Source of the DNA: Armatimonadota bacterium
GTDB taxonomy: Bacteria > Armatimonadota > UBA10988
Reading direction: 5' to 3'
DNA length: 64,000 nucleotides
NCBI GenBank assembly: GCA_016235455.1
Contig: JACRKZ010000067.1
Coordinates: forward strand, 64,001-128,000
Shown: positions 4,482-23,590 of the stretch, in pieces
Position numbering within the stretch: the first letter of the stretch is position 1
Layout of the letters: each line of letters opens with the position of its first letter
Program-made: the position numbers and the translations under genes
The notes under the pieces: model-generated
The model's input: the letters and a program-made list of their open reading frames with translations, nothing else
What the model was told of the DNA's origin: nothing
Databases searched by the model: none

Positions 4482-4501
4482 GCCGGAAAGGACTCGCTTC
4501 C

Positions 4502-7525: not shown

Positions 7526-7552
7526 GGCTCGCCGCGGAGCAGACTACCCGAT

Positions 7553-7601
7553 CAACAGAACGGGGCGGATGGGAGACCGGCCCATCCGCCCCGTTCTGTT
7601 G
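7553..7601. terminator. Bidirectional terminator between convergent genes
   Basis: Perfect 21-bp inverted repeat CAACAGAACGGGGCGGATGGG/CCCATCCGCCCCGTTCTGTTG with a 7-nt loop. Confidence 0.8.
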
Positions 7602-7603
7602 TC

Positions 7604-9673
7604 TCAGCGCTGTGCTTCGTCCTTCAGCCGCAGCACCTTCTCGTGCTCGGCCTCGGTCAGGCCCTTCTCGCTCATCAGCGCCTGGCGCTCGTCCGCGCTC
7701 AAGCTCGCCATGATCTTGAGGTTATCGTCGTAGTTGGCCAGCCAGGCCTCGATATCGGGCAGCGCTCGCCGCCTGGCATCGGCGATGCGGCCGGCATCGG
7801 TGTCCAGCGCCGCGATGCGCAACAGCGCCTCGGCGTGGACCGTGTCGAGTTGATAGGTCAACGCCTTCACCGCCAGCGCTGGCGTCTGGGCCAGCCGGTC
7901 GAGTTCGCGATAGACGCCCAGGGCGTCCGCCGGGCGGTCGGCCTTCTCCAGCAGTTGACCCAGTTGCAGTCGCCCTTGTAGGTGCAACGGGCTGAGCGCC
8001 ACGGCCAGCGCCGACTGCGTCACGGCCTCGTCGAGCCGGCCCCAGCGCGCCTCGCAGGCCGCCAACCGGTAATGCGGGCGGGCGCTCGTGGGGCGCCGCG
8101 CGATGACCTGACGATAGGCCGCGCGGGCCTCGTCACGACGGTCCATCGAGGCCAGCAGGCTGGCCCAATCCTCCATGGCCAGCGCGGCCCATGGCTGCCA
8201 GGTCATGGCCGTCTGGTAGGCGCTCTCGGCGGTGCCCGGCGCGCCGCCGGCGTGCGCCGCCTGGCCCGCGGCGCGCGCCGTCTCGCTGAGCGACATGGCC
8301 GCCAGCAGCAGGGCCAGCGCCAGGCCCGCCAGCCAGCCCTTGCTCCGCCGTGGCGCGGCGGTCACGGCCGGCGCGGTGGCCGCGGCCAGCAGCACCAGGG
8401 CGCCGCCCACGGCAGTCACGCTCCAGCCAGTGTCCACCAGCCCGGCCAGGGCCACGCCGATCACGCTGGCCAGCGCCGCCACCCCGAGCGCCACCTGCCC
8501 GCCGTCGGCCACCTGGCGCCGCGCGTCACGCAGCATCACGGCGTACAGCGCGGCCAGCGCCAGCACCCCAGCCACGCCCACTTCGGCGCCGATGCCCAGC
8601 CAGTCGCTGTGCGCGTGCTGGGTGTAGCCGCTGTGGGCGAACTGGGCATAGGCCAGCGCCCAGCCACCCAGCCCGCAGCCCAGCAGCGGATGGGCGCGGA
8701 TCATGTCCAGCGAGCCGCCCCACACCAGCATGCGGAACTGCTGCGAGTGGGACTGCGTGGCCAGTGCCAGGAACCGTGCGCGCAACGGACCCAACAGCGC
8801 CAGCGCGGCCACCAGCACGATGACCGCCAGCGCGCCGAGCGCCGCTTTGCGCCGCCCGCCCCGCGCCAACGCCACCGTGGCCGTCACGGCACCGGCCATG
8901 ACGGCCAGGAATCCGCCCTTGGAGCCGGTCAGGCCCAGCGCGGCCAGCACCAGCAACGCGCCCAGCGCACCGAGCAGGCGCAGCTTGGCCGAGGCGGAGC
9001 GCACCTGGTTGGCTTCCAGCCAGCGCACCGGCGCACTGTCTTCGCCCAGCCAGGCAGCGCCCGCCAGGCACAACGGCGCCGACACCACCAGGAAGGCGGC
9101 GAACTGGTTGGGGTTGCCAAAGCCGGCGAAGACGCGCCAGCCGGCATCGCCCGCGCGCAGGTTGGGCAGGTACTCGCGCAGCGCCGTCAGGGCGATGAGC
9201 GTGGCCCCGGTCACCAGGCCGGCCAGCACCACGGAGCGCCGCACGCGTAGCGCCGCCTGGCACAGCAGGAGCAGCAGCCCGAGGCGCGTCAACTCGGCCA
9301 CGCCGTATTCCAGATCCGCGGGATAGGCCAACGGCAGGCGCTGGCCGAAGGGTGTCACCACCGAACCGGCCGCGCGCGGCAGCAGCGACACAGCGCCGAG
9401 CACGAGCAGGGCCGTCAGCGGCCAGACCGCCGCCGACCGGCGCAGCGGCGTCGGCCGCAGCATGACCACCAGCAGGGCACCGATGGCCAGGATCAGCCTT
9501 CCCCAAGGCACGCCAACCTGTACCGGACTGTCGAGCACGATGCCACGGCCCAGGAACGGCAGGGCCGCGGCCACGGCGAACAGGAGCAGTTCGGGCAGCG
9601 CGACGGCGGGCTTGACCAGCGGGGCCGCCGCGGGCTCGGGCGCCGGTGGAGCGGTGCGGCGAGGCTTGGGCAT
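7604..9673 (-). CDS. O-antigen ligase (Wzy_C) family membrane protein with C-terminal TPRs
   Basis: FGNPNQFAAFL, LTGSKGG, R..VW..SLDMIRAHPLLGCGLG, HAHSDWL..AEVG motifs; TPR-like tail. Confidence 0.85.
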   Translation of the reverse strand: MPKPRRTAPPAPEPAAAPLVKPAVALPELLLFAVAAALPFLGRGIVLDSPVQVGVPWGRLILAIGALLVVMLRPTPLRRSAAVWPLTALLVLGAVSLLPRAAGSVVTPFGQRLPLAYPADLEYGVAELTRLGLLLLLCQAALRVRRSVVLAGLVTGATLIALTALREYLPNLRAGDAGWRVFAGFGNPNQFAAFLVVSAPLCLAGAAWLGEDSAPVRWLEANQVRSASAKLRLLGALGALLVLAALGLTGSKGGFLAVMAGAVTATVALARGGRRKAALGALAVIVLVAALALLGPLRARFLALATQSHSQQFRMLVWGGSLDMIRAHPLLGCGLGGWALAYAQFAHSGYTQHAHSDWLGIGAEVGVAGVLALAALYAVMLRDARRQVADGGQVALGVAALASVIGVALAGLVDTGWSVTAVGGALVLLAAATAPAVTAAPRRSKGWLAGLALALLLAAMSLSETARAAGQAAHAGGAPGTAESAYQTAMTWQPWAALAMEDWASLLASMDRRDEARAAYRQVIARRPTSARPHYRLAACEARWGRLDEAVTQSALAVALSPLHLQGRLQLGQLLEKADRPADALGVYRELDRLAQTPALAVKALTYQLDTVHAEALLRIAALDTDAGRIADARRRALPDIEAWLANYDDNLKIMASLSADERQALMSEKGLTEAEHEKVLRLKDEAQR

Positions 9674-9679
9674 GGCAGG

Positions 9680-11392
9680 CTACCCCCGGCTGGCGTAGCG
9701 CAGGTCGGAGACAGTGAACTGCGCGCGTTCCTCGCCGTTCCAGCTATCGACCGCCAGCGAGCCGACGGCCTCGACGCGCGCGCCGACCTCGACCCGCTCG
9801 GCGTTCTGCCCGGCTTGCGGCCAGAATGCCTTGAGCTGGCCGCGCATGTCGGTACGGAAGCTCAGTTGCAGATGGTTGCCATCGTTGGTGACGCGCACGC
9901 TGGCGATCTCGACGTCGGTCAGCTTGAGCACCGGCGCCGGGTTGCCATGGCCGAACGGCTCCAGCGCGGCGAGCTGGCGGGCCAGCTCCAGCGTGGCCAT
10001 GCGGCCCTTGACCGCGCACTCGTACTCGACCACGGGCGTCAGGTCGTCCTCGGTCATGCGGCTGCGCACCGCGGCATCGAACCGCTCACACAGCGCCTCG
10101 ATGTTGGCCGCCGGCAGACTGAAGCCTGCGGCGTGATGATGCCCGCCAAAGCCGGTGAGCAGGTCGGCGCAGTCGTTCAGCGCGGCGTGCAGGTCGACCA
10201 CGTTGGTGCTGCGGCCCGAGCCCTTGGCGTTCTCGCCGGAAATGGAGATGACCAGTGTCGGCCGATGGTAGCGCTGGCACAGCCGGCTAGCCACCAGGCC
10301 CACCACGCCTTCGTGCCAACCGTCACCCGACACAACCAGGCCCCACTTCTCGTGCAGGCTCAGGTTGCGCACGCGCTCGTGGGCGAGGTCGGTCAGCCGG
10401 CTCTCCACCTCGCGCCGCTCGCGGTTGAGCTTCTCCAGCGAGTCGGCCAGTTCCCAGGCCTGCTGGTTGTCCTCGGTGGTCAACAGGTCGAAGGCCGCGC
10501 GCGCGGTCTCCAGCCGACCAGCGGCGTTGAGCCGCGGACCGATGCCGAACCCGATGTCGCGCGCCGAGAGGCGTCCGCTCTTGCCCAGCCCGGCGATCTG
10601 CAACATCGCCAGCAGGCCCGGCGAGGTGGTACGGCCCAGACGCTTCAGGCCGTGGTAGACAAAGAAGCGGTTCTCACCGACCAGCGGCATGATGTCGGCG
10701 ACGGTGCCGATGGCCACCAACTCGAGCAACTCGGCGGCCGGGACCTTCGGGTCCTCGCCCAGCAACTCGGCGGTCTTCAGGCACAGCTTGTAGGCTACTG
10801 CCGCGCCGCAGATCTCCTTCTGGGGATACTGCGACTCCGCACGCTGCGGGTCGACCGTCGGCACGGCTGGCAGACGCTCGGGCGGCAGATGGTGGTCGGT
10901 GACGATGACGTCGACACCGAGCGACACCGCGGTCTCGATCTCCGCCGCGCCGCTCACGCCGCAATCCACGGTGACCATGAGGTTGGGCTTGTGCTGGGTC
11001 AGCACGCGGATCACCGCGCCGGCGTTCAGGCCGTAACCCTCGTCGAAGCGGTCGGGCACGTAGTAGTTGACCTTCACGCCGCGCGCCAGGAGGAACTTGT
11101 AGAGCAGCGCGCCGGCGGTGCTGCCGTCGGCGTCGTAATCGCCGTAGATGCACACCGACTGCTGCTCGCGCACGGCGGTGGCCAGACGCTCCGCCGCGGG
11201 CGCCATGTCCGGCAGCAACGCGGGATCGTGCAGGCTGGCGAGCGTGGGCCGCAGGAACTCGGGCATGGCCTCGGGCGTCAGGCCGCGGTTGAGCAGGATG
11301 TGGGCGACGACGGGGTCGATGGCGAGGTCACGCGCCGCCTGCCGCGCTTCGTCGCGCCGGTCCGCCGCGGGCCGCCAGATGCTGGAACGCAT
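9680..11392 (-). CDS. recJ: Single-stranded-DNA exonuclease RecJ
   Basis: YGDYDADG, VPDRFDEGYG, TVDCG, TDHH, GPRLNAAGRL, GGHHHAAG, EPFGHGN. Confidence 0.97.
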   Translation of the reverse strand: MRSSIWRPAADRRDEARQAARDLAIDPVVAHILLNRGLTPEAMPEFLRPTLASLHDPALLPDMAPAAERLATAVREQQSVCIYGDYDADGSTAGALLYKFLLARGVKVNYYVPDRFDEGYGLNAGAVIRVLTQHKPNLMVTVDCGVSGAAEIETAVSLGVDVIVTDHHLPPERLPAVPTVDPQRAESQYPQKEICGAAVAYKLCLKTAELLGEDPKVPAAELLELVAIGTVADIMPLVGENRFFVYHGLKRLGRTTSPGLLAMLQIAGLGKSGRLSARDIGFGIGPRLNAAGRLETARAAFDLLTTEDNQQAWELADSLEKLNRERREVESRLTDLAHERVRNLSLHEKWGLVVSGDGWHEGVVGLVASRLCQRYHRPTLVISISGENAKGSGRSTNVVDLHAALNDCADLLTGFGGHHHAAGFSLPAANIEALCERFDAAVRSRMTEDDLTPVVEYECAVKGRMATLELARQLAALEPFGHGNPAPVLKLTDVEIASVRVTNDGNHLQLSFRTDMRGQLKAFWPQAGQNAERVEVGARVEAVGSLAVDSWNGEERAQFTVSDLRYASRG

Positions 11393-11395
11393 CGT

Positions 11396-11908
11396 CTACC
11401 GCCCGCGCCGACGGTCGGCGCGTCGGCGCTGAGCGTCTTCGATGGCCAGCTTCTGCAGGTCCACCCCGGCCGCCACGTCGTCGTCGAGCAGTTCCGCGGA
11501 GCCAATGGGTGTGGCCGCCGGCACGACCGGGTCGATGGCGCCGATGGCGGTGTCGAAGCCTTCGCGTAGCACGGGCAGCGCGCCTTCCAGCGCGCGGTTG
11601 GCCGCGGCCAGGCGTTCGTTGTCGCGGCGCTGCGCCTCAATGGTGCTGCGCCAGGTGCGGCCCAGCGAAGCAAAGGTGACGATGGCGGCCAGGGCGCCGA
11701 TGATCGCGCCGAAGCCGAACACGCCCCCCAGCATCTCCGGCAGTGTGGCATACAGCCGGTTGTTGCCTGGCAACTCCAGCGCCAGCACGCGCGGATCCGC
11801 CACCGGCAGCGTGACCGCCTTGCCCCAGTTGAACCAGAGCACGATGACGAATAGCGCCACCGGCGCCACCACCAGCAACGTTGCCACGCCCATCCCGAGC
11901 CGCTTCAT
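11396..11908 (-). CDS. Membrane protein with two TM segments and a coiled coil (LapA-like)
   Basis: Two hydrophobic helices then a coiled coil and acidic tail; lies between the promoter at 11933 and recJ. Confidence 0.6.
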   Translation of the reverse strand: MKRLGMGVATLLVVAPVALFVIVLWFNWGKAVTLPVADPRVLALELPGNNRLYATLPEMLGGVFGFGAIIGALAAIVTFASLGRTWRSTIEAQRRDNERLAAANRALEGALPVLREGFDTAIGAIDPVVPAATPIGSAELLDDDVAAGVDLQKLAIEDAQRRRADRRRGR

Positions 11909-11932
11909 GCCATGGTTACCCCGGTCGTTGGC

Positions 11933-11961
11933 AGTATAGTCAAACCCTGGGCGACGGTCAA
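11933..11961 (-). promoter_or_regulatory. sigma70-type promoter for the LapA-like/recJ operon
   Basis: TTGACC-N17-TATACT on the minus strand. Confidence 0.75.
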
Positions 11962-12824
11962 CGCGCCAGCACATCGGCCGAAGGCAGCCAATGGTCGTCG
12001 AGCACCTGCACCATGGCCACGGACGTGGTGTCGGGCAGCGCCAGGCGCCAGACGATCTGCTTCTCCGCCGTCACCTCGAACAGGTCTGCCTTGTCGCCGT
12101 CGCCCGTGTAGTGCGCGAAGATGGTGTTGCCGTTGCGCAGCCGCACCACGGCGGTCACCGTGCTGACCTTGTCCGGCGCGGGCACCTCAGCGCAGGCGTA
12201 CTTCCAGATCAGCCGGTGCTCCTTGTCGTACTCGGTGACCCCCTCGAACGAGCCGACCACGGTGTTGCCGCCGGGCAGGCGCACCGCCGAGACCGGGCCG
12301 CCGATATCCAGCTTCCAGAGCTGCGTGCCGTCGGCGGCGAACTCACGCACGGTGTTGTCCGCGAACATCGGCGCCAGGTACGTGCCTTCGGGCGTCTTGC
12401 GGCAGAAGCGGAACTGCCCGTGGTTGCCCTTGAACCCGCTGGTCATCTGCACCGTGCGCTGCGCCTTGCCCTCGGCGTCGACTTCGAGCAGGCGGCAGGG
12501 GCCTTCGTTGCCCACCAGCACCAGCCCACCGTCCAGCGGCTGCGCCACGGGATTCTGGCAACCTTCGGGCACGGTGTAGGTCCACAGCGTCTGCTGATCG
12601 CGGTTCACCTTGCGAACACCGTTCAGCACGGCGCAAACGATGCTGCCATCGGGCAGAACGGCAGCATCCTGGGCGTGGTTCATGGGGCACTGCCAGAGCA
12701 GCTTGCCGTCGTTGTCCACGATGGCCACGCGGTCGGGGCTGTGGCTGGTGACCAGGAAGCAACGCGCGCCGGCAGGCGCCAGGGCCAGCGCGGCAGCCAG
12801 CAGACTCGTCAGAAGCTTGTTCAT
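11958..12824 (-). CDS. Secreted beta-propeller protein (PQQ-like/arylsulfotransferase-like repeats)
   Basis: Signal peptide MNKLLTSLLAAALALAPAGA; repeated LPDGxxV/EVDxxGKxxW blades; ATG 7 nt after TGCTACAAT. Confidence 0.75.
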   Translation of the reverse strand: MNKLLTSLLAAALALAPAGARCFLVTSHSPDRVAIVDNDGKLLWQCPMNHAQDAAVLPDGSIVCAVLNGVRKVNRDQQTLWTYTVPEGCQNPVAQPLDGGLVLVGNEGPCRLLEVDAEGKAQRTVQMTSGFKGNHGQFRFCRKTPEGTYLAPMFADNTVREFAADGTQLWKLDIGGPVSAVRLPGGNTVVGSFEGVTEYDKEHRLIWKYACAEVPAPDKVSTVTAVVRLRNGNTIFAHYTGDGDKADLFEVTAEKQIVWRLALPDTTSVAMVQVLDDHWLPSADVLAR

Positions 12825-12840
12825 GACGACCATTGTAGCA

Positions 12841-13815
12841 TCAGCGAGGCAGGTCGAAGGCCGCCGGTGCGATGGCCAGCAGGCCGCGGGTGCGCGCGTC
12901 GTGCTCGACCCGGTAGCAGAACCACGGGCGCTCGTCGGGCCCATCGAACACCGACAGATGACCGCCTTCGAACACCTGGCCGCGCGGGTCCTTGGTCCAC
13001 GGCCCCAGGGGCTTGTCCGCATAGGCCACGCCGGTCCAGTAGCCGGGCGCCCGGGGATCGCGGTAGTTCTGGGCGTACCACAGCACATAGCGGCCGCCCA
13101 GCCGTGCCATCCACGGGCCTTCCAGGTACTCGGGATCGACCCGGAAGGGGATGTCGTCGTTCCTGGCCGACAGCGCCAGCCGCTCCTCGCCAACCAGTTC
13201 AGCCTTGCCCTGCTCCAGTCGGCTCAGGTCGAGGCGCTGCACATATACATCGGACTTGGGCATGACGGCGTAGATGGTGCCGTCGGTGTCGCCGAACAGC
13301 GACGTATCGCACGGCCCATGGGGGATGGCGGTGATGTGCTCGTACGGTCCGGTCACTGTGTCGGCCACGCCGACGAAGGCATAGCCGGCCGTGCCCCAGG
13401 TGCCGGCCGGGTTGTACTCGCGACGGAGCCAGTTGTCGGCCGTGAAGATCAGGTAGTAGCGGCCGTTGATGCGGTGGATCTCCGGCGCCCAGAAGCGATG
13501 CCGGTAGGGACAGTCCTCGGGCAACTCACTCGACTTGACCAGCCAGTTCTCGAACCTGAAGGTGCCGAAATCCTTGGTGGAGTACAGCGCGATGCCCGGC
13601 GAGGAGCCGCAGTCAGGCTCCGCCAGATGCTGCTCGTCCCGGCCCCGGAAGGGCCACATGGTGAAGGTCAGGTACCAGGTGTCGCCTTCGCGGATGAGAC
13701 ACGGGTCGCGCACCTCGCGTCGCTCGGCGCTCTGGCCTTGCTGGTAGGCGAAGGGCAGCGGGCCAAGGGTCGGCGCGGCCAGGAGGCTGAGCATCAAGGG
13801 CAGACAGATCGCCAT
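12841..13815 (-). CDS. Glycoside hydrolase family 43 protein
   Basis: RDP, WAPEIHRINGRYY, GPY, DTSLFGD, EGPW, GH motifs of the five-bladed GH43 propeller; signal peptide. Confidence 0.85.
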   Translation of the reverse strand: MAICLPLMLSLLAAPTLGPLPFAYQQGQSAERREVRDPCLIREGDTWYLTFTMWPFRGRDEQHLAEPDCGSSPGIALYSTKDFGTFRFENWLVKSSELPEDCPYRHRFWAPEIHRINGRYYLIFTADNWLRREYNPAGTWGTAGYAFVGVADTVTGPYEHITAIPHGPCDTSLFGDTDGTIYAVMPKSDVYVQRLDLSRLEQGKAELVGEERLALSARNDDIPFRVDPEYLEGPWMARLGGRYVLWYAQNYRDPRAPGYWTGVAYADKPLGPWTKDPRGQVFEGGHLSVFDGPDERPWFCYRVEHDARTRGLLAIAPAAFDLPR

Positions 13816-13909
13816 GGCCACACGCTGACACACCGCCGGACCGATTGTCAAGCAGCACGGCGCGCCCAAATCTGCTAAAATCGCGCGCAAGCCCAAGGGG
13901 ATATGATCC

Positions 13910-16552
13910 ATGCGTAGCCGACCCGCCCTGTTGTCTCTCCTGCTGGCCGCGGTGCTGGTGCCCGTCGCCGGCAGTCGCGCCGTCGAGCCGGCCAGCTATG
14001 TGCGCCGCGCCACTGCGCGCGAAAGCCTGCAGGCCAGCCTGGCCGCGGCGGGCAACACGCGCGATGTCATCCAGCGCCGCCGCATCCTCGAGAAGCTGGC
14101 CCAAGACTTCGGCCGCGAGGCAGTCGGCGAGTTGGAGATCGAGCAGGACTGGCTGTTCCAGACGAACTACCAGGTCACGCCGGCCAGTGTGCGCCAGGAG
14201 ATCGAGTGGGCCCAGCAGGTGGCCAGTCGCCTGCCGGCGGGCGTGGGCGCGGCGCAGCGCGCGGAACTAGCGGCACTGCGCGACGGGCTCAACGCGGACA
14301 ACATCGAGGCCACCTACTTCGCGGTGCGCCGGGCCAAGCGCGCGCTCCTGTTCGCCGATCCGGCCGTCGACTTCAAGAGCGTGGTGTTGACCGACAATCC
14401 GTTCCCCAACAACAGCTTCGGCCACAACGCCCACGAGTCGGGTCACCGCAACCAGTACGGCACGACCAATGCCGGTGGTCGCCTGCTGGTGCTCGACGGC
14501 CTGCATCCCGGCGCGCCGCTACGCGATCTGGCGCCCGGGTTCGATGGCGTGTTCTGGCGGCCCGACCTGTCCTACGACGGCCGCCGGGTGGTGTTCTGCT
14601 ACCTGCCCAAGGACGGCCCGTCCTACAACCTGTACGAGGTGGGTGTCGATGGCCAAGGGCCGCGCCGGCTGACCAACAGCCCCTACGACGATCTCGATCC
14701 GATCTACCTGCCCGACGGCAACCTGATGTTCAGCACGACCCGCGGCAACACCTACATCCGCTGCCTGCCCCAGAGCCGCGCCTTCGTCATGGCCCGCTGC
14801 GATGCGAACGGCAAGAACATCTACCTGGTCAGCCAGGGCAACGAGCCGGACTACCTGCCCTCGATGATGCCCGACGGGCGCGTCATCTACACGCGCTGGG
14901 AGTACACCGAACGGCCGCTGTGGCGTGTCCAGTCGCTGTGGACCGCGCGACCCGACGGCACCGGCCACGCCGCCTACTGGGGCAACAGCAGCGTCTATCC
15001 CGACCTGCTCTGGGAGCCGCGCGCTGTGCCCGGCACCGACCTGATCATGTGCACCTGTGCGGGCCATCACAGCGTGTTCAATGGCTGCCTGACCCTGATC
15101 AACGTCAACGAGGGTCGGAACCATCCCGACGGCGTTCACAAGATCACCTCCGATGTCGCCTGGCCCGAGGTGGGCGATTCGAACGACCCGGTGGACAAGC
15201 GCTCGTTCTCGCCGCGCTACCATCGCACCGGCGACTTCACCGCCTACATGGCGCCCTACCCGCTCAGCCCCAACCTGTTCCTCGTGTCCGCGCGCACAGG
15301 CCCGCAGACCGGCGGCAACTCCCTCCAGCAGGATCCTGAGGTGGTGCGCTACGGGCTGTACCTGATGGACATCGACGGCAACAAGGAGCTGATCTACCGC
15401 GGCCGCCACAACGCCTGGTATGCCCAGCCGCTGCGCCCGCGCGCCAAGCCGCCCACGCTGGCCAGCACCGTGGCCTGGGCCAAGCCCGATGAGCAGGCCC
15501 AACCGGGCACCTTCTTCAGCTCCAACGTCTACCAGGGCGCCGCTGGCCTCAAGCCGGGCTCGGCCAAGTGGCTGCGCGTGCTGCAGATGGACGCCAAGAC
15601 CTACTCCATGGGCTTCAAGAGCCTGCGCCACAGCGGCCCGGCCGTGTCCATCCTGCAGGAGGATGGCGTCAAGCGCATCCTCGGCACGACCCCCGTCGAG
15701 CCCGATGGCTCGGTCAACTTCGAGGTGCCGGCCGGTAAGGCGCTGCACTTCCAGTTGCTCGACGAGCAGGGCCGCTGCATCCAAATCATGCGCTCGTTCA
15801 CCGGCGTGCAGCCCGGCGAGAAACGCGGCTGCGTCGGCTGCCACGAGATGCACAACACCGCGCCCACCCCGCCGCGCACCATGCCGGCAGCCATGCGGCG
15901 CGCCGCCCTGCCGCTGACCGAGCCCTCCTGGGGCGCGGGCACGTCGGTCAGCTTCGAGCGGTTCTGCCAGCCCGTGCTCGACCGCAATTGCGGCCTGTGC
16001 CACGCCGACAACGGTCGCGCCACACCGGTGCTCGACCTGACGCTGCGCAGCGGCGTCAACGAGGGCGGCATCAGCGAAGCCAACCTGCTGCCCTACAAGC
16101 AGCCGTACCTGACGCTGGTGGGCGATGCCTGGGGCTATCCCTCGCGCCTGGCCGACGGCGAAGCCGCCCCCCAACGCGGCCAGCCCGGCTATGGCATGGC
16201 CGGCCCGATCTGCGTGGAAGGCACCGGTGGCGACACCATGGGCGGCCTGCGCACGCTGCGGCCCTACACCATGCTGTCGTCGGCCAGCCCGCTCATCGCC
16301 CTGGCCATGAGCGGCACCCACTACGGCGTCAAGGTCGAGGGCGAGGACCTGCAGCGGCTGATTGCCTGGGTGGACTGCAACTGCGTCTACCGCGGTGACG
16401 AGGAGATCCGGCAGATCCCCGATCCGCCGCGACCGCCCGGCTGGGCTGTGCCGCCGCTGGTCCAGAGCGCGCCGGTCATCGACCGCACCAAGCCCATCGA
16501 TTACGTGCCCGCGGCCAGCGCTGTGGCGGCGGCCACCGACGCTCGGCCGTAA
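13910..16552 (+). CDS. HzsA-related secreted protein (TolB/WD40-like propeller + hydrazine synthase alpha middle domain + c-type hemes)
   Basis: DLSYDG, DLDPIYLPDG, YTRWEY, KRILGTTPVEPDGSVNFEVPA..FQLLD..MRS..QPGE; CVGCH and CGLCH heme motifs. Confidence 0.85.
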   Translation: MRSRPALLSLLLAAVLVPVAGSRAVEPASYVRRATARESLQASLAAAGNTRDVIQRRRILEKLAQDFGREAVGELEIEQDWLFQTNYQVTPASVRQEIEWAQQVASRLPAGVGAAQRAELAALRDGLNADNIEATYFAVRRAKRALLFADPAVDFKSVVLTDNPFPNNSFGHNAHESGHRNQYGTTNAGGRLLVLDGLHPGAPLRDLAPGFDGVFWRPDLSYDGRRVVFCYLPKDGPSYNLYEVGVDGQGPRRLTNSPYDDLDPIYLPDGNLMFSTTRGNTYIRCLPQSRAFVMARCDANGKNIYLVSQGNEPDYLPSMMPDGRVIYTRWEYTERPLWRVQSLWTARPDGTGHAAYWGNSSVYPDLLWEPRAVPGTDLIMCTCAGHHSVFNGCLTLINVNEGRNHPDGVHKITSDVAWPEVGDSNDPVDKRSFSPRYHRTGDFTAYMAPYPLSPNLFLVSARTGPQTGGNSLQQDPEVVRYGLYLMDIDGNKELIYRGRHNAWYAQPLRPRAKPPTLASTVAWAKPDEQAQPGTFFSSNVYQGAAGLKPGSAKWLRVLQMDAKTYSMGFKSLRHSGPAVSILQEDGVKRILGTTPVEPDGSVNFEVPAGKALHFQLLDEQGRCIQIMRSFTGVQPGEKRGCVGCHEMHNTAPTPPRTMPAAMRRAALPLTEPSWGAGTSVSFERFCQPVLDRNCGLCHADNGRATPVLDLTLRSGVNEGGISEANLLPYKQPYLTLVGDAWGYPSRLADGEAAPQRGQPGYGMAGPICVEGTGGDTMGGLRTLRPYTMLSSASPLIALAMSGTHYGVKVEGEDLQRLIAWVDCNCVYRGDEEIRQIPDPPRPPGWAVPPLVQSAPVIDRTKPIDYVPAASAVAAATDARP

Positions 16553-16574
16553 GCCATGGGGTGGGCCGAGGAGC

Positions 16575-17426
16575 CTACTGCGGCCCAGGCCAGCCGCCAA
16601 GCCGCGCCATCAGCCACCACCAGGCGCGCGCCGCGCGCTGGCTACCGACGTCGTTGAGGTGGCCGCCGTCGGTGGTATAGCCGTCCCATAGCGCCGGCGT
16701 GCCGGTCTCGTTGACCGCCAGGCTACCGTCCGGCTTGTGGCACTCGATGTCGGCGATGTCGAACAGCACCACGCTGTGCGTCCGGACGTACTGCGCCATC
16801 AGTTCGTTGAAGCGCAGACGCCGCTCCTGGAGCATGGCCTCACGCCGTAGCGGCATGGTCCAGTAGACGAAGGTGACCTGCGGGTAGGCCTGCTTCATGC
16901 GCTCCAGCACGCCGGTGTAAGCCGCGAAGGCCTGGTCGGTGTCGACGCGTGGCTGCATATCGGCCCAGCACAGCTTGAGCGAGGCGACCTGCACGCGGTC
17001 GCCCACGCCCGAGCGCAAGCGCTGCTCGAAGGCCTGCGCCTTGCCCGGTACGTTGGCCGCGTTGCCTACGAAGAAGTCGCCGAAGCCCTTGTGCTGCGCG
17101 TACCAGCCGGCCTGGATCATGTGCCCGATATCGAGCCGATACCGCGGCAACTGCCGGCTGAGCTGGTCCAGCCCGCCGATCACGTTCCAGCCCACCGATT
17201 CATGGCCGAGCAGCGTCTGCGTGACGCGCGCGCGGTCCAGCGCGTCGAGCGGGATCACCTTGTCGGCCGCGTCGACGCAGGTGTGGTCAATGACCATCGA
17301 GGCCGGCGCGGCTGGCGCCGTGTCCTGGGCCCGCGCTGCACAGGCGCTGAGCGCCGCTCCCACGATGGCCAGGCCGAAGGTCCAGGTCGCACGCCACGGC
17401 GGCCGTCGCCGGACAGAAACGGTCAT
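16575..17426 (-). CDS. Secreted SGNH/GDSL-like hydrolase
   Basis: Signal peptide; GHESVG, LFDIADIE and DGGHLN motifs; AAGGAG SD. Confidence 0.65.
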   Translation of the reverse strand: MTVSVRRRPPWRATWTFGLAIVGAALSACAARAQDTAPAAPASMVIDHTCVDAADKVIPLDALDRARVTQTLLGHESVGWNVIGGLDQLSRQLPRYRLDIGHMIQAGWYAQHKGFGDFFVGNAANVPGKAQAFEQRLRSGVGDRVQVASLKLCWADMQPRVDTDQAFAAYTGVLERMKQAYPQVTFVYWTMPLRREAMLQERRLRFNELMAQYVRTHSVVLFDIADIECHKPDGSLAVNETGTPALWDGYTTDGGHLNDVGSQRAARAWWWLMARLGGWPGPQ

Positions 17427-17559
17427 CGTCGGTCTCCTTGGCAGCTCAGTATTGCGCGCCCGCCGCGCGAGCGCAGGGCCTTCAGGGCGGGCCTTGCCGG
17501 ACGATAACGTGTTCAGACGCTCTTGTTTTCGTGCGTCCTTGCTTGACCAGGAACCAGCC

Positions 17560-18618
17560 ATGAAAATCGCCTCGTCGCAGCTGTCGCTGGCCAGCCAGCA
17601 CGTCGCCGTATCGTTCACCAGCATCAGCGAGAGCGCCACGCTGTGGATCGGCCAACCGCCGAACGGCACCGGCCCGACCACCGAGCCGCGCCGCGACCGG
17701 CTCGACCTGAGCGATGCCGGCGCGGGCCAGGTGCAGAGCAGCGCCGAGCAACCCGAGGAATGGCAGACCTCGGACCCCAAGTACGCCCTGGTCAAGCTGC
17801 TGCTCGAGCGACTGTTCGGCGCGACCTTCGACTGGCTCAATCCGAGCGACTTCACCGAACTGGACCCCGAGGCCCAGCGGAGCCAAGACGATCTGCGGCA
17901 GGTGGCCGCGGAGCAACAGGGCACCGCCACCGATGAGCCCGAAGGTTGGGGCCTGACCGTGACGCGCGACTACCAGCATGCGGAGGCCGAGGCCGTGCGC
18001 TTCCGGGCCCAGGGCCAGGTGGTCACCGCCGATGGCCAGTCGCTGCGCTTCTCGGTGGACATGGGCTTGAGCCGGGAGTACGCCATCAGGGCTCAGCAGG
18101 AGTTGCGCTTCGGCGATGACGCGCGCGTCCGTGACCCGCTGGTGCTCAACTACGCCGGACACGCCGCTGAGCTCACCGACCGCACCTTCGAGTTCGACCT
18201 GGATGCCGACGGCACCAGGGATCGGATCAGTTTCACCACGGCGGGCAGCGCCTTCCTGGCGGTCGACCGCAACCAGAACGGGCGGATCGACGACGGCTCC
18301 GAGCTGTTCGGCCCAGCCACGGGCGACGGCTGGGCCGAACTGGCAGCGAGCGACGACGACCACAACGGCTGGATCGACGAGAACGATGCCGCGTTCGACC
18401 AACTCCGGCTGTGGACCCGCGACGACCAGGGGCAGGACCACCTCACCGGGCTGCTGGCGGCCAACGTGGGCGCCATTGCCCTGGCCAGCACGGCGACGCC
18501 GTTCACCTACACCACCGCGGCCAACGAGACGCTGGGGCAGAGCCGCTCGGCGGGCATCTTCCTGCACGAAGACGGCAGCGGCGCCGGCACGGTGCAGCAG
18601 ATCGACCTCGTGGCCTGA
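17560..18618 (+). CDS. Protein with a C-terminal FrpC-like self-processing module (Asp-Pro site, DxDxDG Ca2+ loops)
   Basis: D192-P193 followed by LVL..FDLDADG..LAVDRNQNGRIDDGSELFG..LAASDDDHNGWIDENDAAFDQLRLW; start MKIASSQL after AGGA. Confidence 0.75.
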   Translation: MKIASSQLSLASQHVAVSFTSISESATLWIGQPPNGTGPTTEPRRDRLDLSDAGAGQVQSSAEQPEEWQTSDPKYALVKLLLERLFGATFDWLNPSDFTELDPEAQRSQDDLRQVAAEQQGTATDEPEGWGLTVTRDYQHAEAEAVRFRAQGQVVTADGQSLRFSVDMGLSREYAIRAQQELRFGDDARVRDPLVLNYAGHAAELTDRTFEFDLDADGTRDRISFTTAGSAFLAVDRNQNGRIDDGSELFGPATGDGWAELAASDDDHNGWIDENDAAFDQLRLWTRDDQGQDHLTGLLAANVGAIALASTATPFTYTTAANETLGQSRSAGIFLHEDGSGAGTVQQIDLVA

Positions 18619-18789
18619 TCTCTGGACGCGGGTGGTGGGACGCGGGACGAGCGAGTCCGACGCGGCCGCCCATGTGCCCGGTCGCAAGGTCCCACGTCGC
18701 ACGCCACACGCCCCATGTCCAAACACCATCCGCACTTGTCAAGGACGGGGACGACGTGATAGAAGTGTGCGGAAGGACGGGAGGTGGCC

Positions 18790-19269
18790 GTGAAGGAGCG
18801 CCTGATCAGGCTCAGCCATTGGCTGTGGCAGTGGTTCTTGGCCGCACTGCGGGGCGTTTGGGCGTTGCTGGGCATGTTCTATGCCTGGCTTTCGCGCCAG
18901 AGTCGGCTGCTGTCGACTCGCGCCGCCATGCGCGCCAAGGAGCGTGAGCGCCGGCAACGGCTAGAGGCCATCGGTGGCATGGTCTTCATCCTGTTCAAGC
19001 GCAGTCTGGTGCGTAATCACGACCTGCTGGTGGAGTGCGAGAAGGTGCGCGACATCGATCTCGAACTCGACGCGCTGCTGGGGCAGGCCGACCGCATCCG
19101 CACCGAACGCCGCGCCGCCGCCGCACCGTCGGCTGACACGTCGCGCCTCGCCGCGCAGACCGTGGAGACCGACGCCGCCGCGGACGGCGTAACCGCACTC
19201 GACCCGCTCGCGACCCAACCGGACCGACTGACCGATGGGACCGGGTCCGACACCAGCCTTATCGCCTGA
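18790..19269 (+). CDS. Hypothetical protein (Trp-rich amphipathic N-terminus, coiled coil)
   Basis: GGAGGT SD before GTG; ends 20 nt before trpB2. Confidence 0.6.
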   Translation: MKERLIRLSHWLWQWFLAALRGVWALLGMFYAWLSRQSRLLSTRAAMRAKERERRQRLEAIGGMVFILFKRSLVRNHDLLVECEKVRDIDLELDALLGQADRIRTERRAAAAPSADTSRLAAQTVETDAAADGVTALDPLATQPDRLTDGTGSDTSLIA

Positions 19270-19289
19270 CATCAATAGGAGCACCTCTC

Positions 19290-20645
19290 ATGTCCGAAAC
19301 CCGCAAGTTCCTTCTGACCGAGAAGGACCTGCCGAACGCTTGGTTCAACGTCAAGCCGCACCTGCTGGAGCAGCCGTCGCCGCCGCTCCATCCCGGCACG
19401 TTGCAGCCGGTGGGGCCCGACGACCTGGCGCCGCTGTTCCCCATGGCGCTGATCATGCAGGAAGTCACCACCGACCCGTACGTGGACATCCCCGGCGGCG
19501 TGCTCGACATCCTGCGCATGTGGCGGCCGACGCCGTTGGTGCGCGCCTCCAACCTGGAGAAGGCGCTCGATACGCCGGCCAAGATCTTCTTCAAGTATGA
19601 GGGGGTCAGCCCGGTCGGCTCGCACAAGCCCAATACGGCGGTGCCGCAGGCCTATTACAACAAGCAGGAGGGCCGCCCGCGCGTGACCACCGAGACCGGC
19701 GCCGGTCAGTGGGGCTGCTCGCTGGCCATGGCCGCCGCGCAGTTCGGCCTGGAATGCGATGTCTGGATGGTCAAGGTCTCGTATGGCCAGAAGCCCGGCC
19801 GCCGCACGCTCATGCGCAGCTTCGGCGCGAGCGTGCAGGCCAGCCCGAGCACCTCGACCAACGCCGGCCGCGCCGTGCTGGCCGCGCATCCCGACAGCCC
19901 CGGCAGCCTGGGCATCGCCATCTCCGAGGCGGTGGAGGCCGCGGCCGTCGACCCCAACGCCAGCTACTGCCTGGGCTCGGTGCTCGACCATGTGCTGCTG
20001 CACCAGACCATCGTCGGCCAGGAAGTCGTCAAGCAGCTCGAGATGGCCGGCGTCGTGCCCGACATCATGCTCGGCTGCGTCGGTGGCGGCTCCAACTTCG
20101 GCGGCTTCGCCTTCCCGTTCATCCCCGAGAAGATCAAGCGGCCCGAACTGCGGCTGGTGGCCTGTGAGCCGGCGGCCTGCCCGACCATCACCCGCGGCAA
20201 GTACGCCTACGACTTCGGCGACCTGGCCGGCCTGACGCCGCTGCTCAAGACGCACACCCTCGGCTCTCAATTCGTTCCGCCGCCCGTGCATGCCGGTGGC
20301 CTGCGCTACCACGGCATGGCGCCGCTGGTCAGCGCCTGCGCTGAGCAGGGACTGATCGAAGCCGCCTCGTTCCAGCAGAACGAGTGCTTCGAGGCGGCCA
20401 TCCTGTTCACCAAGACCGAAGGCATCCTGCCCGCGCCGGAATCGTCGCACGCCATTCGTGGCGCCGTGGTCGAAGCGCTGAAGTGCAAGGAGTCGGGCGA
20501 GTCCAAGACCATCGTCTTCAACCTGTCGGGCCACGGCTACTTCGACACCTCGTCGTACGACGCCTATCTGGCCGGCGAGCTCGTGGACTACGAGTACCCC
20601 GAAGAGGCCATTGACGAGGCCATGCGGGACCTGCCTCAGGTCTGA
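19290..20645 (+). CDS. trpB2: TrpB2 (stand-alone tryptophan synthase beta-like PLP enzyme)
   Basis: WRPTPLVRA, SHKPNTA (PLP lysine), TETGAGQWG, GSLGIAISEA, HAGGLRYHG, FNLSGHG. Confidence 0.95.
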   Translation: MSETRKFLLTEKDLPNAWFNVKPHLLEQPSPPLHPGTLQPVGPDDLAPLFPMALIMQEVTTDPYVDIPGGVLDILRMWRPTPLVRASNLEKALDTPAKIFFKYEGVSPVGSHKPNTAVPQAYYNKQEGRPRVTTETGAGQWGCSLAMAAAQFGLECDVWMVKVSYGQKPGRRTLMRSFGASVQASPSTSTNAGRAVLAAHPDSPGSLGIAISEAVEAAAVDPNASYCLGSVLDHVLLHQTIVGQEVVKQLEMAGVVPDIMLGCVGGGSNFGGFAFPFIPEKIKRPELRLVACEPAACPTITRGKYAYDFGDLAGLTPLLKTHTLGSQFVPPPVHAGGLRYHGMAPLVSACAEQGLIEAASFQQNECFEAAILFTKTEGILPAPESSHAIRGAVVEALKCKESGESKTIVFNLSGHGYFDTSSYDAYLAGELVDYEYPEEAIDEAMRDLPQV

Positions 20646-20656
20646 CCAAGCGCTTG

Positions 20657-20701
20657 GCGGACGGCGCACTCACCTGGCGGGTGAGTGCGCCGTTCTGCTT
20701 T
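20657..20701 (+). terminator. Intrinsic terminator after trpB2
   Basis: GCGGACGGCGCACTCACC/GGTGAGTGCGCCGTTCTGC stem followed by TTT. Confidence 0.7.
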
Positions 20702-20732
20702 GGGCAGGCGCCCCGCGTCGACCCAAAGACAG

Positions 20733-20764
20733 CGGCCGGCGACCACCTGAGTGGTCGCCGGCCG
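20733..20764 (-). terminator. Terminator after the first prepilin gene
   Basis: Perfect 14-bp stem CGGCCGGCGACCAC/GTGGTCGCCGGCCG; minus-strand tail CTGTCTTT. Confidence 0.7.
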
Positions 20765-20788
20765 GTCCGAGTTCAGGTCCGCTCGCGA

Positions 20789-21472
20789 TCAGGGATGACG
20801 AGCTTCACAGGCGGCGAGGCCGGCCACGGTGGCGGCGCCCGCCGGGGTGCTCTCCCAGCCGTTGCTCCACAAGCTGGCCGGCTGGCCGGTGGCAGACGGC
20901 TTGAGCAGCTTGACGTGGCCGTCAGCGAACAGGTAGTTGCCGCGACCCATGTGGCCCGCCCACAGGCGGTCGAGGCTGTCGGTGCCGACGCGCACCGAGG
21001 AGTTGTTGCTCTCGCAGACCAGGATCAGCGAGGCCGGCGCGCCGATCGCCGCCGAGTTCAGGTTGGACGGCGCATAGCCCATCGGGCACTGGCCCTCGGC
21101 GTTGCCCTGCGCGCCGGCGGCACCGGTCCCACCGTTGGCCGCGTAGCTGATGGGGAACACGGCATCGTTGCTCGCATTCGCGTTGGCCGTGTTCGACGGG
21201 CACTTGAAGATGTCGCGGCTCTTGATGTACGGCACGGTGATGACCCGCCAGGACTGGGCGTCGCCGCTCGTGCGCGCCGGCGTGATCATCTCGTCGTAAT
21301 CCTGAGTGTACTGCATGATGGCCAGGCCCATCTGCTTCAGGTTGCTGCCGCAACTCGACGTGCGCGCCTTCTCTCGGGCCTTGGCGAAGACCGGGAACAA
21401 GATGGCCGCCAAAATGGCGATGATCGCGATCACCACCAGCAACTCGATAAGCGTAAACGCTCGCTTGCGCAT
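20789..21472 (-). CDS. DUF1559 prepilin-type N-terminal cleavage/methylation protein with H-X9-DG motif
   Basis: KRA|[60 protein letters not shown]. Confidence 0.93.
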
Positions 21473-21514
21473 AACTCCACTCCCAGACGCGGCGGTCACT
21501 CCGCCAGCAGGCAG

Positions 21515-21543
21515 ATACTAACGAACCCCTGTCACAAACGCAA
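21515..21543 (-). promoter_or_regulatory. sigma70-type promoter of the first prepilin gene
   Basis: TTGCGT-N17-TAGTAT on the minus strand. Confidence 0.55.
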
Positions 21544-21618
21544 CAATGTCGATAGCACCACAGTGGAACCTGCCAGGGAACACGGCCACGATGCCAGGAT
21601 ATGGCGCCTTGGAGGCCC

Positions 21619-21665
21619 TGGAATCGGTTCTGTATACACCGCATGGTATCAGTCAAACGATTCTA
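21619..21665. promoter_or_regulatory. Two LacI-type operator-like sites
   Basis: TGGAATCGGTTCTG (21619-21632) and GTCAAACGATTCTA (21652-21665), both fitting AAnCGnTT, in an AT-rich intergenic region. Confidence 0.5.
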
Positions 21666-21967
21666 TTGAACGACCAGTAATTAGAGGATATAACTACCCT
21701 ATTTTCCAAGGGCGCCGACTCCTAGCGCACCCGGATCTGGACGCAGGTCGGCGAGTGATGTTTGAGCCAGGGCCGGAATGGGTAGCCCTCCGACCAGCCC
21801 GAAATTGACTTATCGCATTGAGAACCACCTGCGCACAGCGCGGCCCGGCGAATCGCGACCAGGGCTGGCAGCCGAGTCGGGCCGACAGCGCAGCCTGGGG
21901 TCGGGGCTGGCGATGCGGGGCTCTTGGGTTATCATAACGAGGGCGGTTTCCCCCAGGAGGTGGTTCC

Positions 21968-23590
21968 GTGACGAAGTACGTGTTCATCACCGGCGGCGTC
22001 GTTTCCAGCATCGGCAAGGGCATCAGCGCGGCGAGCTTGGGCCGGTTGCTGAAGGCGCGCGGGCTACGCGTCAGCGTGCTCAAGATGGACCCGTACATCA
22101 ACGTCGACGCGGGCACCATGAACCCCTTCCAGCATGGCGAGTGCTTCGTCACCGACGATGGCGCGGAGACCGATCTGGACCTGGGGCACTACGAGCGCTT
22201 CCTGGATATCAACGTCACGCGCCACGCCAACATCACCACGGGGCAGGTCTACGGCTCGGTGATCGAGAAGGAGCGTGACGGCAACTTCTACCGTGGCGGC
22301 ACGGTGCAGGTCATCCCGCACATCACCGACGAGATCAAGGAGCGCATCCGCCTGAGCGCCGAGCGCTCACAGGCCGACGTGGCGCTGATCGAGGTCGGCG
22401 GCACCGTGGGTGACATCGAGGGTATGCCGTTCCTGGAGGCCATCCGCCAATTCCGCCGCGAGCTGCCGCCCGACGCAACGTTGGGCGTGCATGTCACGCT
22501 GGTGCCGGGCGTGGGGCCGCAAGAAGAGATCAAGACCAAGCCCACGCAGCATTCGGTGCGCGAACTGCGCAATGCCGGCCTGCACTGCGACCTGCTCGTG
22601 GCCCGCACCAAGTACAGACTGACCGACGACCACCGCGCCAAGATCTCGCTGTTTTGCGATATCCCGCCCGAGGCGGTGATCTCCGCGCCCGACGCGCCGT
22701 CCATCTACGATGTGCCCATGACTTTCGAGGCCCAGGGCGTGGCCGAGCTGGTCTGCAAGCGGCTGAACTTGACCACGTCCGAGCCCGACCTGCGCGACTG
22801 GGAGTCGTTGGTGTCGCGCGTGCACAACCGCAAGGGCGAAGTCACCATCGCCATGGTGCCCAAGTACCAGGAGCAGGGCGTCGACACCTACCTGAGTGTG
22901 GTTGAAGCCATCACCCATGGCGCGCTGCACCACGGTGTGAAGGTCAACCTGCGCTGGGTCTATGCCCGCGAGACCGACCCCGCCGACATGCCCGCGGCGC
23001 TGGAGGGCGTGCACGGCGTGCTGGTGCCCGGTGGCTTCGGCGAGGCCGGCATCGAGTCCAAGATCGCCGCCATCCGCTGGGCGCGTGAGAACAACGTCCC
23101 GTTCCTGGGCCTGTGCCTGGGTCTGCAGTGCGCGGTCATCGAGTTCGCGCGTAACGTCTGTGGGCTTGAGGGCGCCAACACCACCGAGGTCAACAAGCAG
23201 TCGCCGCATCCGGTCATCGCCATGCTCGACGAGCAGCGCGGTGTGCGCGACCTGGGCGGCACCATGCGCCTGGGCGCGCAGGAGTGCTACGTCTGCCCCG
23301 ACACGCTGGCCCGCCGGGTCTACGACGCCGAAGTGGTCTGGGAGCGCCATCGCCACCGCTACGAAGTCAACAACGAGTACCGCAAGCAGCTCGGCGAGGC
23401 CGGCCTGCGCTTCTGTGGCATCTCGCCCAACGGCCTGCTGGTGGAGATGATCGAACTGCCCGACCACCCGTTCTTCCTGGCCAGCCAGTTCCATCCCGAG
23501 TTCAAGTCGCGGCCGACCAGCCCGCACCCCATGTTCCGCGGCTTCGTCGAGGCCGCCGCCAAGCACGCGGGGCTACCTGCCGGCGCGTGA
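21968..23590 (+). CDS. pyrG: CTP synthase
   Basis: KYVFITGGVVSSIGKG, DPYINVDAGTMNPFQHGE, KTKPTQHSV, GLCLG, ERHRHRYE, QFHPEF. Confidence 0.98.
   Translation: MTKYVFITGGVVSSIGKGISAASLGRLLKARGLRVSVLKMDPYINVDAGTMNPFQHGECFVTDDGAETDLDLGHYERFLDINVTRHANITTGQVYGSVIEKERDGNFYRGGTVQVIPHITDEIKERIRLSAERSQADVALIEVGGTVGDIEGMPFLEAIRQFRRELPPDATLGVHVTLVPGVGPQEEIKTKPTQHSVRELRNAGLHCDLLVARTKYRLTDDHRAKISLFCDIPPEAVISAPDAPSIYDVPMTFEAQGVAELVCKRLNLTTSEPDLRDWESLVSRVHNRKGEVTIAMVPKYQEQGVDTYLSVVEAITHGALHHGVKVNLRWVYARETDPADMPAALEGVHGVLVPGGFGEAGIESKIAAIRWARENNVPFLGLCLGLQCAVIEFARNVCGLEGANTTEVNKQSPHPVIAMLDEQRGVRDLGGTMRLGAQECYVCPDTLARRVYDAEVVWERHRHRYEVNNEYRKQLGEAGLRFCGISPNGLLVEMIELPDHPFFLASQFHPEFKSRPTSPHPMFRGFVEAAAKHAGLPAGA

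Follow-up and report, generated by a model that had tools for sequence, protein, structure and literature searches.

A stretch of 64,000 nucleotides from an Armatimonadota bacterium (contig JACRKZ010000067.1, positions 64,001 to 128,000; hereafter the window) contains a gene, at 17560..18618 on the forward strand, for a stand-alone protein of 352 amino acids whose residues 193-352 are a complete self-processing module (SPM) like that in the Neisseria protein FrpC, beginning exactly at Pro193. The family formed by this protein and its full-length relatives is almost confined to genomes with flagellin, and a predicted sigma-28 (FliA) promoter lies upstream of the gene in the majority of relatives from several phyla. 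We consider, with a probability of roughly 0.55, that the protein belongs to the late flagellar regulon and would cut itself between Asp192 and Pro193 on binding calcium, probably once it has been exported by way of the flagellar type III channel. The evidence for a flagellar link is strong at the level of the family; for the copy in the window, the link is no more than plausible.

A FrpC-type module in a stand-alone protein

The initial annotation, made from the sequence, had proposed a stand-alone protein with a FrpC-type SPM and quoted the text DPLVL..FDLDADG..LAVDRNQNGRIDDGSELFG..DDDHNGWIDENDAAFDQLRLW. This text is present in the open reading frame (ORF), with D192-P193 encoded at 18133-18138, and the comparisons bear out the proposal. 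A phmmer search of the PDB chains with the single sequence matched 6sjw_A at E 9.1e-07 (residues 211-294 against chain residues 23-112), and the two FrpC SPM entries were the sole significant matches. A profile built from 80 relatives matched the FrpC SPM at E 3.9e-15. The AlphaFold model of the full protein, predicted from the alignment of these 80 relatives, had a pLDDT of 82.9 and a pTM of 0.68. A Foldseek search with this model, a comparison that the annotation had suggested, found 6sjx at E 1.5e-9 with a TM score of 0.70 on the target over 179 columns, while the next unrelated match had an E value of 0.021. VIA-align against 48,161 chains gave 6sjw a Z score of 20.2 (rmsd 2.8 Å, 147 of 179 residues aligned), followed by a next Z score of 3.5. 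In the VIA pairing, model residues 193..352 correspond to 6sjw chain residues 1..170, and residue 193 corresponds to FrpC P415. Proteins with SPMs of the repeats-in-toxin (RTX) type were matched at E 1e-8 to 1e-4, with 32-47% identity over the module, and the precomputed Pfam label PF26745.1 is attached to the window protein. Both its sequence and its predicted fold thus make the window module a homologue of the FrpC SPM. The features of the gene and its upstream region are as follows, all on the + strand:

17560..18618: gene of the stand-alone SPM protein, stop codon included (ORF of 352 aa, 38.2 kDa, pI 4.3, three Lys, no Cys)
17481..17506: weak sigma-28-like stretch TTCA-N15-GACGATA, 3 substitutions from TAAA-N15-GCCGATA, not significant alone
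17549..17553: AGGAA, putative ribosome-binding-site-like pentamer, 6 nt ahead of the ATG, read from the sequence
17560..18135: N-terminal domain, residues 1-192, 21.2 kDa (models, conservation, DUF8379 label in a minority of relatives)
18133..18138: codons of Asp192-Pro193, predicted scissile bond (D and P in 269/269 relatives; Pro193 is 6sjw chain residue 1)
18136..18615: SPM, residues 193-352, 16.9 kDa, no Lys (sequence, profile, Foldseek and VIA matches)
18196..18222: EF-hand-like loop D213-x-D-x-D-G-x-x-D221 (conservation in 269 relatives; FrpC alignment)
18265..18303: EF-hand-like calcium loop D236-E248, FrpC D462-E474 (conservation in 269 relatives; roles from PMC7078468)
18352..18387: EF-hand-like calcium loop D265-D276, FrpC D499-D511 (conservation in 269 relatives; FrpC alignment)
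18604..18615: last strand D349-L350-V351-A352, read by eye from the sequences as FrpC D579-L582

The ORF runs from an ATG at 17560 to a stop codon at 18616-18618, and its product begins MKIASS. The start is backed by the alignment of 269 relatives, in which M1 is found in 260 and I3 in 252. A longer upstream frame was rejected as spurious because the relatives begin at the same Met; this frame also overlaps the divergent gene of a GDSL lipase. Local Pfam, NCBIfam and PADLOC scans assigned no family to the protein, and a PHROGs scan gave a weak match over the SPM only (phrog_3677 'protease', E 0.0019). The protein had been called non-RTX, without a Sec signal and without neighbours of a type I secretion system (T1SS), and all three descriptions held up. 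Neither a HemolysinCabind repeat (local Pfam) nor a GGxGxD motif (regular expression) was found. By inspection alone, no Sec-type signal was seen: within the first 45 residues no hydrophobic run is longer than 3, and the N-terminus has no Cys and no RR motif; residues 3-30 are modelled as a beta strand with pLDDT >90. No T1SS gene (ABC transporter, membrane fusion protein or TolC) lies within 7604-23590.

The C-terminal signal for T1SS normally sits after the SPM in RTX proteins. In the window protein the module ends the protein, which stops 3 residues past D349, at the counterpart of FrpC L582, the end of the cleavage-site port. The module has the same fold as the clip-and-link modules of the RTX proteins FrpC/FrpA of Neisseria meningitidis and ApxIVA of Actinobacillus pleuropneumoniae (6sjw, 6sjx; PMC7078468), and it likewise has its Asp-Pro at the first residue, with the PL(A/V)L strand coming next in both. 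However, it is only 26-28% identical to the FrpC SPM and is minimal in size, with 160 rather than 177 residues, and among 20 aligned SPM segments, DLDGDG and longer loops are a feature of the RTX-type modules. The window family also differs from FrpC and ApxIVA in lacking RTX repeats and a T1SS signal, in carrying another N-terminal passenger, and in occurring in environmental flagellated bacteria, including Gram-positives, in association with sigma-28-type promoters.

We compared the module with FrpC residue by residue, using printed alignments, the residue roles given in PMC7078468, and counts over the 269 relatives. D192 and P193, the counterparts of FrpC D414-P415, are present in all 269, as the annotation's proposal would require of homologues, followed by L194 in 266 and V195 in 254. 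The mean column identity in the 80-sequence family alignment is about 41%. Of the 20 aligned SPM segments, 11 belong to RTX-type or other long sequences outside the family, and 3 of these (P0273, P0277 and P0279) have Ser-Pro instead of Asp-Pro; they are possibly non-cleaving relatives or use another chemistry. The SPM fold can therefore do without the Asp, and this lends meaning to the invariance of the residue in the window family.

FrpC binds calcium at four sites, D419-G424 with D456, D462-E474, D499-D511 and D521-E532, and at a transient fifth site formed by D414, D478 and D579 (PMC7078468). Two of the four are intact in the window family. In the loop D236-E248, D236 and E248 are found in 269/269 and N238 and G241 each in 257; in the loop D265-D276, D265, D273 and D276 are invariant, with D267 in 268 and N269 in 261. 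The first of these loops is followed by L249-F250-G251, equivalent to FrpC L475-F476-G477, which is part of the 'narrow port' (PMC7078468); F250 and G251 are present in all relatives. Other residues that shape the FrpC port are retained as well: G257 (FrpC G491) is found in 267/269, and the aromatic pair W451/W519 of FrpC corresponds to F225 (211/269) and W285 (263/269). At the fifth site, D192 and D349 are present and the position of D478 is taken by Pro252. Residue 349 is D in 260 relatives, N in 8 and otherwise E; its pairing with FrpC D579, and that of L350 with L580, was read from the sequences, with no printed alignment. FrpC accepts the exchange D579N but not D579A (PMC7078468), and the D/N variation at 349 mirrors this tolerance. 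A further loop, DxDxDG at 213-221, is much better conserved in the window family than its FrpC counterpart (DHNRDG), with D213 in 269, D or N215 in 266, D217 in 262, G218 in 265 and E or D221 in 267 of 269; judging from the sequences, its part 213-218 may stand in for the lost D419-G424/D456 site. The likeness to FrpC that the initial annotation had drawn by eye thus held for the fold, the Asp-Pro and two EF loops, but not for the D419-G424/D456 site, D478 or the length of the third EF loop.

Predicted sigma-28 promoters and shared occurrence with flagellin

Since the family occurs in motile bacteria, Gram-negative as well as Gram-positive, and its proteins lack an export signal, we looked for promoters of alternative sigma factors upstream of its genes. 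The pattern TAAA-N14-16-GCCGATA, with at most 2 substitutions and within 200 nt upstream of the gene, was found in 51/65 loci with a full-length match. The reverse strand gave 3 matches, shuffled sequences a mean of 3.9 (maximum 9) and random windows from the same loci a mean of 3.3 (maximum 7). In further Clostridia loci the pattern was present in 11/13, compared with 0 on the reverse strand and means of 0.8-1.1 in the controls. Bases outside the pattern also fit the published sigma-28 consensus, which has TCTAAAG at -35 and GCCGATAA at -10 (PMC12784957): among the 51 matches, a C precedes the T in 34, G, T and T follow TAAA in 30, 29 and 29, and an A follows GCCGATA in 29. The spacer is 15 or 16 in 51/51, and the distance from the end of the -10 element to the ATG has a median of 44 nt. 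Sorted by hand, matches occurred in 6/8 Bacillota, 10/11 Desulfobacterota and 5/6 Gammaproteobacteria loci, and several of the loci counted as misses carry a 3-substitution version of the same box. A relative from the same taxonomic family as the window's genome (L092) carries, at an equal distance, a match with 2 substitutions, and matches with 1-2 substitutions are seen in other members of the phylum. Sigma-54 promoters were also considered and were found in 3/66 upstream regions, which is no enrichment.

FliA is encoded in the window's own genome (with a score of 232.7 bits, above the cut-off), as are at least five flagellins, and a sigma-28-type match with 0-2 substitutions was found at 4 of 6 flagellin starts examined, with none at fla2 and fla4. 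With PF00669 as the flagellin marker, the co-occurrence of the family with flagellin was counted in three evenly drawn genome samples; the one-sided Fisher p values overstate the significance, as the sampled genomes are related:

Own phylum: full-length family in 10/301 genomes; flagellin in 10/10 carriers and in 176/301 overall; Fisher p 0.004
Order of an Azonexus genome: family in 25/151; flagellin in 25/25 carriers and in 101/151 overall; Fisher p 1.4e-05
Class of an Acetobacterium genome: family in 22/200; flagellin in 21/22 carriers and in 71/200 overall; Fisher p 6.4e-10

In the pooled samples, the family was present in 1/304 flagellin-less and 56/348 flagellin-bearing genomes, that is, 56/57 carriers had flagellin. 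Together, the promoters and the co-occurrence point to the flagellar regulon. They also give a specific form to the 'another route' to which the annotation had left the export of the N-domain, and this may be the flagellar type III channel. The family genes resemble late (sigma-28, class III) flagellar genes in having a sigma-28-type promoter at the usual distance, but they mostly lie outside flagellar clusters. An exception is a Clostridia locus (L122, genome G494; 4085-6360 and 6937-7980), where the family gene adjoins a flagellin glycosylation island that comprises two flagellin genes, FlaG, a PseB-like gene and one for a Maf glycosyltransferase; the other flank of this locus holds a sporulation cluster, spoIIGA-sigE-sigG. 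Among the matches listed in a search of the FliA-regulon literature, none names the family.

Proposed cleavage and export, and competing explanations

In the course of events that we propose, the protein would be made alongside the late flagellar genes, and its SPM would stay unfolded in the cytoplasm, where calcium is scarce. The chain would then leave unfolded through the flagellar type III channel. At about millimolar calcium the SPM would fold, straining and breaking the D192-P193 bond, and would leave a 21-kDa N-fragment with a C-terminal aspartic anhydride that either hydrolyses or acylates a nearby amine such as that of a lysine. Once outside, the firing SPM would thus release the N-domain or fix it covalently. 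The calcium-dependent steps are modelled on FrpC; expression with the late genes is suggested by regulation and distribution, and the exit by these together with the lack of other signals. Export by the flagellar channel would account for three features: that Sec and T1SS signals are missing, that the family is present in Gram-negative as well as Gram-positive flagellates, and that a calcium-gated module is used. Because the flagellar channel and the T1SS both take unfolded chains, a module unfolded in the absence of calcium would suit both.

FlgM and the Campylobacter proteins FlaC, Cia and FspA are non-flagellar proteins that leave by the flagellar type III channel. The present family resembles them in having no Sec signal, in being tied to flagellin genomes and in that half of the window protein would be expected to be unfolded before export. 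It has no likeness to flagellar proteins in sequence (Pfam scan) or in the fold of the N-domain (Foldseek and VIA). We also considered that the family could act as a covalent 'glue' that calcium arms and the flagellum delivers, with the N-domain welded to the filament, the cap or a touched surface in Gram-negatives and Gram-positives alike; this extension appears unlikely.

Several findings weigh against a self-cleaving protein exported by the flagellum. On the side of regulation, 14/65 and 2/13 loci have no promoter match at up to 2 substitutions. The best match of the window's own gene, at 17481-17506, differs from the pattern by 3 substitutions, and two of these fall on near-invariant positions; a match with at most 3 substitutions was reached in 182/1000 shuffles of its upstream region. 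A match alone does not prove that the promoter is used, and many cytoplasmic proteins, for example those of chemotaxis and cyclic di-GMP enzymes, likewise belong to sigma-28 regulons. The gene lies outside flagellar clusters at 10 annotated loci and in this window, and one carrier genome (G581, 2.0 Mb, with a partial family match) showed no flagellin. Flagellar export substrates usually have a disordered N-terminal signal, whereas the extreme N-terminus of the window protein is modelled as an ordered strand. On the side of cleavage, the D419-G424/D456 site is gone, with N197 in 254/269, variable residues at 199 and 201, A202 in 236/269 and, in the window protein, S230. The position of FrpC D478 is P252, with P in 219 and A in 38 of 269, and D478A in FrpC strongly reduced cleavage (PMC7078468). 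The third EF loop (FrpC D521-E532) is 4 residues shorter, and D288, G291 and D293 are found in 202, 241 and 185 of 269. In view of these altered sites, the calcium dependence and the rate may differ from those of FrpC, or cleavage may have been lost.

The changes at these three places, together with the natural SPM-like modules that carry Ser-Pro, would agree with a calcium-binding protein that does not cleave at all, in which the Asp-Pro and the fold are kept for structural reasons and the SPM serves as a calcium-dependent folding or binding unit. However, an Asp-Pro conserved in every relative at such a low mean identity is hard to explain without chemistry at this bond. Moreover, residue 349 varies only to N or E, in keeping with what FrpC tolerates at D579, and the carboxylates of D478 and D579 are structural rather than catalytic in FrpC (PMC7078468). 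We therefore regard loss of cleavage across the family as improbable. The altered calcium sites could also mean a metal affinity unlike that of FrpC, which would suit a cytoplasmic protein of motile cells that is never exported and whose SPM acts as an intracellular calcium or metal switch, freeing the N-domain, for example upon envelope damage, or maturing constitutively. The cytoplasmic members of sigma-28 regulons, the gene of a methyl-accepting chemotaxis protein (MCP) directly downstream at 14 loci, the ordered N-terminal strand and the absence of any export signal of known kind (Pfam scan and inspection) are all compatible with such a protein. On the other hand, FrpC-type SPMs were assayed at 0.5-10 mM calcium and are still highly efficient at 2 mM (PMC7846742), while cytosolic calcium is below 100 nM (PMC7078468). 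Half of the protein would be unfolded in the cytoplasm, an irreversible cut would be a poor signalling device for motility, and the lysine-free SPM with its invariant Asp-Pro fits anhydride chemistry used outside cells. A cytoplasmic role thus seems fairly unlikely.

It could also be argued that the protein is exported and undergoes clip-and-link processing, but leaves by a non-flagellar route such as a T1SS encoded elsewhere, vesicles or lysis, and that the promoter and co-occurrence signals reflect lifestyle. The closest characterised SPM proteins are indeed T1SS substrates (PMC7078468), the family gene is not embedded in flagellar clusters at the 10 annotated loci, and the promoter match in the window is not significant. 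Nevertheless, the protein has no RTX repeats and nothing after the SPM, where a T1SS signal normally sits. The family is also frequent in Clostridia (22/200 genomes), which to our knowledge have neither an outer membrane nor a TolC-type T1SS. Lifestyle alone does not account for a positioned sigma-28 motif in 51/65 and 11/13 loci, and we give this route little credence. Self-cleavage following flagellar export remains the reading that we prefer. If both the cut and the export are true, the family would represent a new class of flagellum-exported protein and a natural role for protein anhydride chemistry beyond RTX toxins, and would explain how one calcium-gated module serves two different narrow-channel export systems.

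Family, N-terminal domain and neighbourhood

In a word-indexed search, 8000 candidates were scored, and 2200 proteins with a length close to that of the query matched at E<=0.001; the top 120 matches cover 99-100% of the query. An exhaustive search of representatives at 50% identity gave 12,394 matches at E<=0.001, 2157 of them at E<=1e-30, and nearly all of the 150 matches listed have 330-400 aa. Two metagenomic relatives are 68% identical to the window protein, and named relatives from Dechloromonas, Azonexus and Sulfurimicrobium are 43-48% identical over 99-100% of the length. The latter are named, for example, 'VCBS repeat-containing protein' in their source, but the local Pfam scan detected no VCBS domain in the window protein. 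Family loci were found in Beta- and Gammaproteobacteria, Desulfobacterota, Bacillota, one Myxococcota and one Bacteroidota metagenome-assembled genome. Pfam 38.1 names PF26745.1 'SPM' and PF28292.1 'DUF8379', and the nearest atlas clusters carry PF26745 in 100% of their members. The SPM domain of the family is thus already recognised by the database, and the window protein is a full-length member of this family, to which the labels assign no function.

The annotation had called the system undescribed, which no longer fits a family of thousands with database labels, although our literature search found no experimental paper on the stand-alone family; the alignment of SPM homologues in the supplement of PMC12538545 could hold a non-RTX SPM. 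The literature searched presents the SPM as characteristic of one subclass of the RTX toxins made by pathogens, and the SPMs in the panel of PMC12538545 all derive from RTX proteins and share at least 60% identity with FrpC. What is new here is the SPM outside RTX proteins, in a large family that is labelled in databases but experimentally untouched, together with the sigma-28 promoter upstream of the relatives and the family's tie to flagellin-bearing genomes. SPM biology (FrpC, ApxIVA) and its use in NeissLock rest on a handful of close relatives, while the commonest natural setting of the module may be a small stand-alone protein in the flagellar late-gene programme of thousands of environmental lineages. 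If active, the window module would yield the same calcium-inducible aspartic anhydride as NeissLock and split NeissLock (PMC7846742, PMC12538545), from a lysine-free module of 160 instead of 177 residues with other calcium sites, and might then serve protein ligation.

The N-terminal domain is predicted to contain three long beta strands of 25-28 residues (3-30, 130-156 and 161-185) with pLDDT >90. Modelled alone from 62 sequences, it had a pLDDT of 75.3, with a low-confidence middle region in which an amphipathic helix (73-86) is conserved. Among the conserved residues of the domain are H14, W29, E142, E144, F148, T156-x-D158-G159, R172, R183 and G185, and the DUF8379 label (PF28292, Pfam 38.1) covers the domain in a minority of relatives. 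Foldseek found nothing at E<=0.001. The best VIA match was complement C8 (Z 6.0, 92 residues aligned, rmsd 4.5 Å), and pore forms of gasdermin, perforin and pleurotolysin followed at Z 4-5. A membrane pore was considered and rejected, as these scores lie below the level that is meaningful for the tool and reflect long beta hairpins; the strands are mostly polar and have only a partial hydrophobic face. A predicted complex of three copies scored 0.12 (mark 0.42), which speaks neither for nor against self-association. In a search with residues 1-192, no fusion of the domain to other domains was found in the longer proteins searched, which is weak evidence.

Three Bacillota proteins of 675-758 aa (P0270-P0272) have the same N-domain in enlarged form, a mid-protein SPM and a tail of 200-260 residues that belongs to no known family; cleavage of their Asp-Pro would give two sizeable proteins. 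The window's own genome has one copy of the family gene. Two copies were seen in genomes G301, G345, G370, G399, G429, G434, G446 and G634, and the second copy is often matched only from about residue 45-125 on, so that its N-terminal part may differ.

The family gene behaves as a solitary unit, apart from the MCP gene in one clade. Across 80 related loci, no cluster of neighbouring ORFs occurred in more than 20 loci, and the large clusters reflected the synteny of one clade. By Pfam, the 48 neighbours at 10 loci from different taxa included no common partner and no T1SS gene. The MCP gene lies downstream on the same strand at the 14 Rhodocyclaceae-type loci mentioned above, where the two genes may form a sigma-28-driven operon; at one locus (L007, 7062-8720) the MCP gene overlaps the stop codon of the family gene. 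At a locus of Desulfosediminicola flagellatus (L078, 9147-9923, - strand), an SprA-related gene (PF12118) lies two genes off, a single case that is probably due to chance.

In the window, the genes at 7604-23590 encode O-antigen-ligase-like/TPR, RecJ, BamB-like, HZS_alpha/PD40 and GDSL lipase proteins, a 161-aa protein, a PALP enzyme and a DUF1559 pseudopilin. The HZS_alpha/PD40 protein (13910-16552, + strand; 880 aa) has a signal-peptide-like start, a PD40 propeller repeat, a middle domain of the hydrazine-synthase-alpha type (PF18582, E 1.8e-25) and the CxxCH motifs CVGCH and CGLCH in its C-terminal third, and may be a haem-bearing periplasmic enzyme. The divergent gene at 16575-17429 (- strand) encodes a GDSL-like lipase/acylhydrolase with a signal-peptide-like N-terminus. 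Directly downstream of the SPM gene, the 161-aa ORF (18784-19269, + strand) belongs to no known family and has a hydrophobic, Trp-rich N-terminal part. The protein encoded at 20789-21499 (- strand) combines a prepilin-type N-methylation motif with DUF1559, a family typical of Planctomycetota and relatives.

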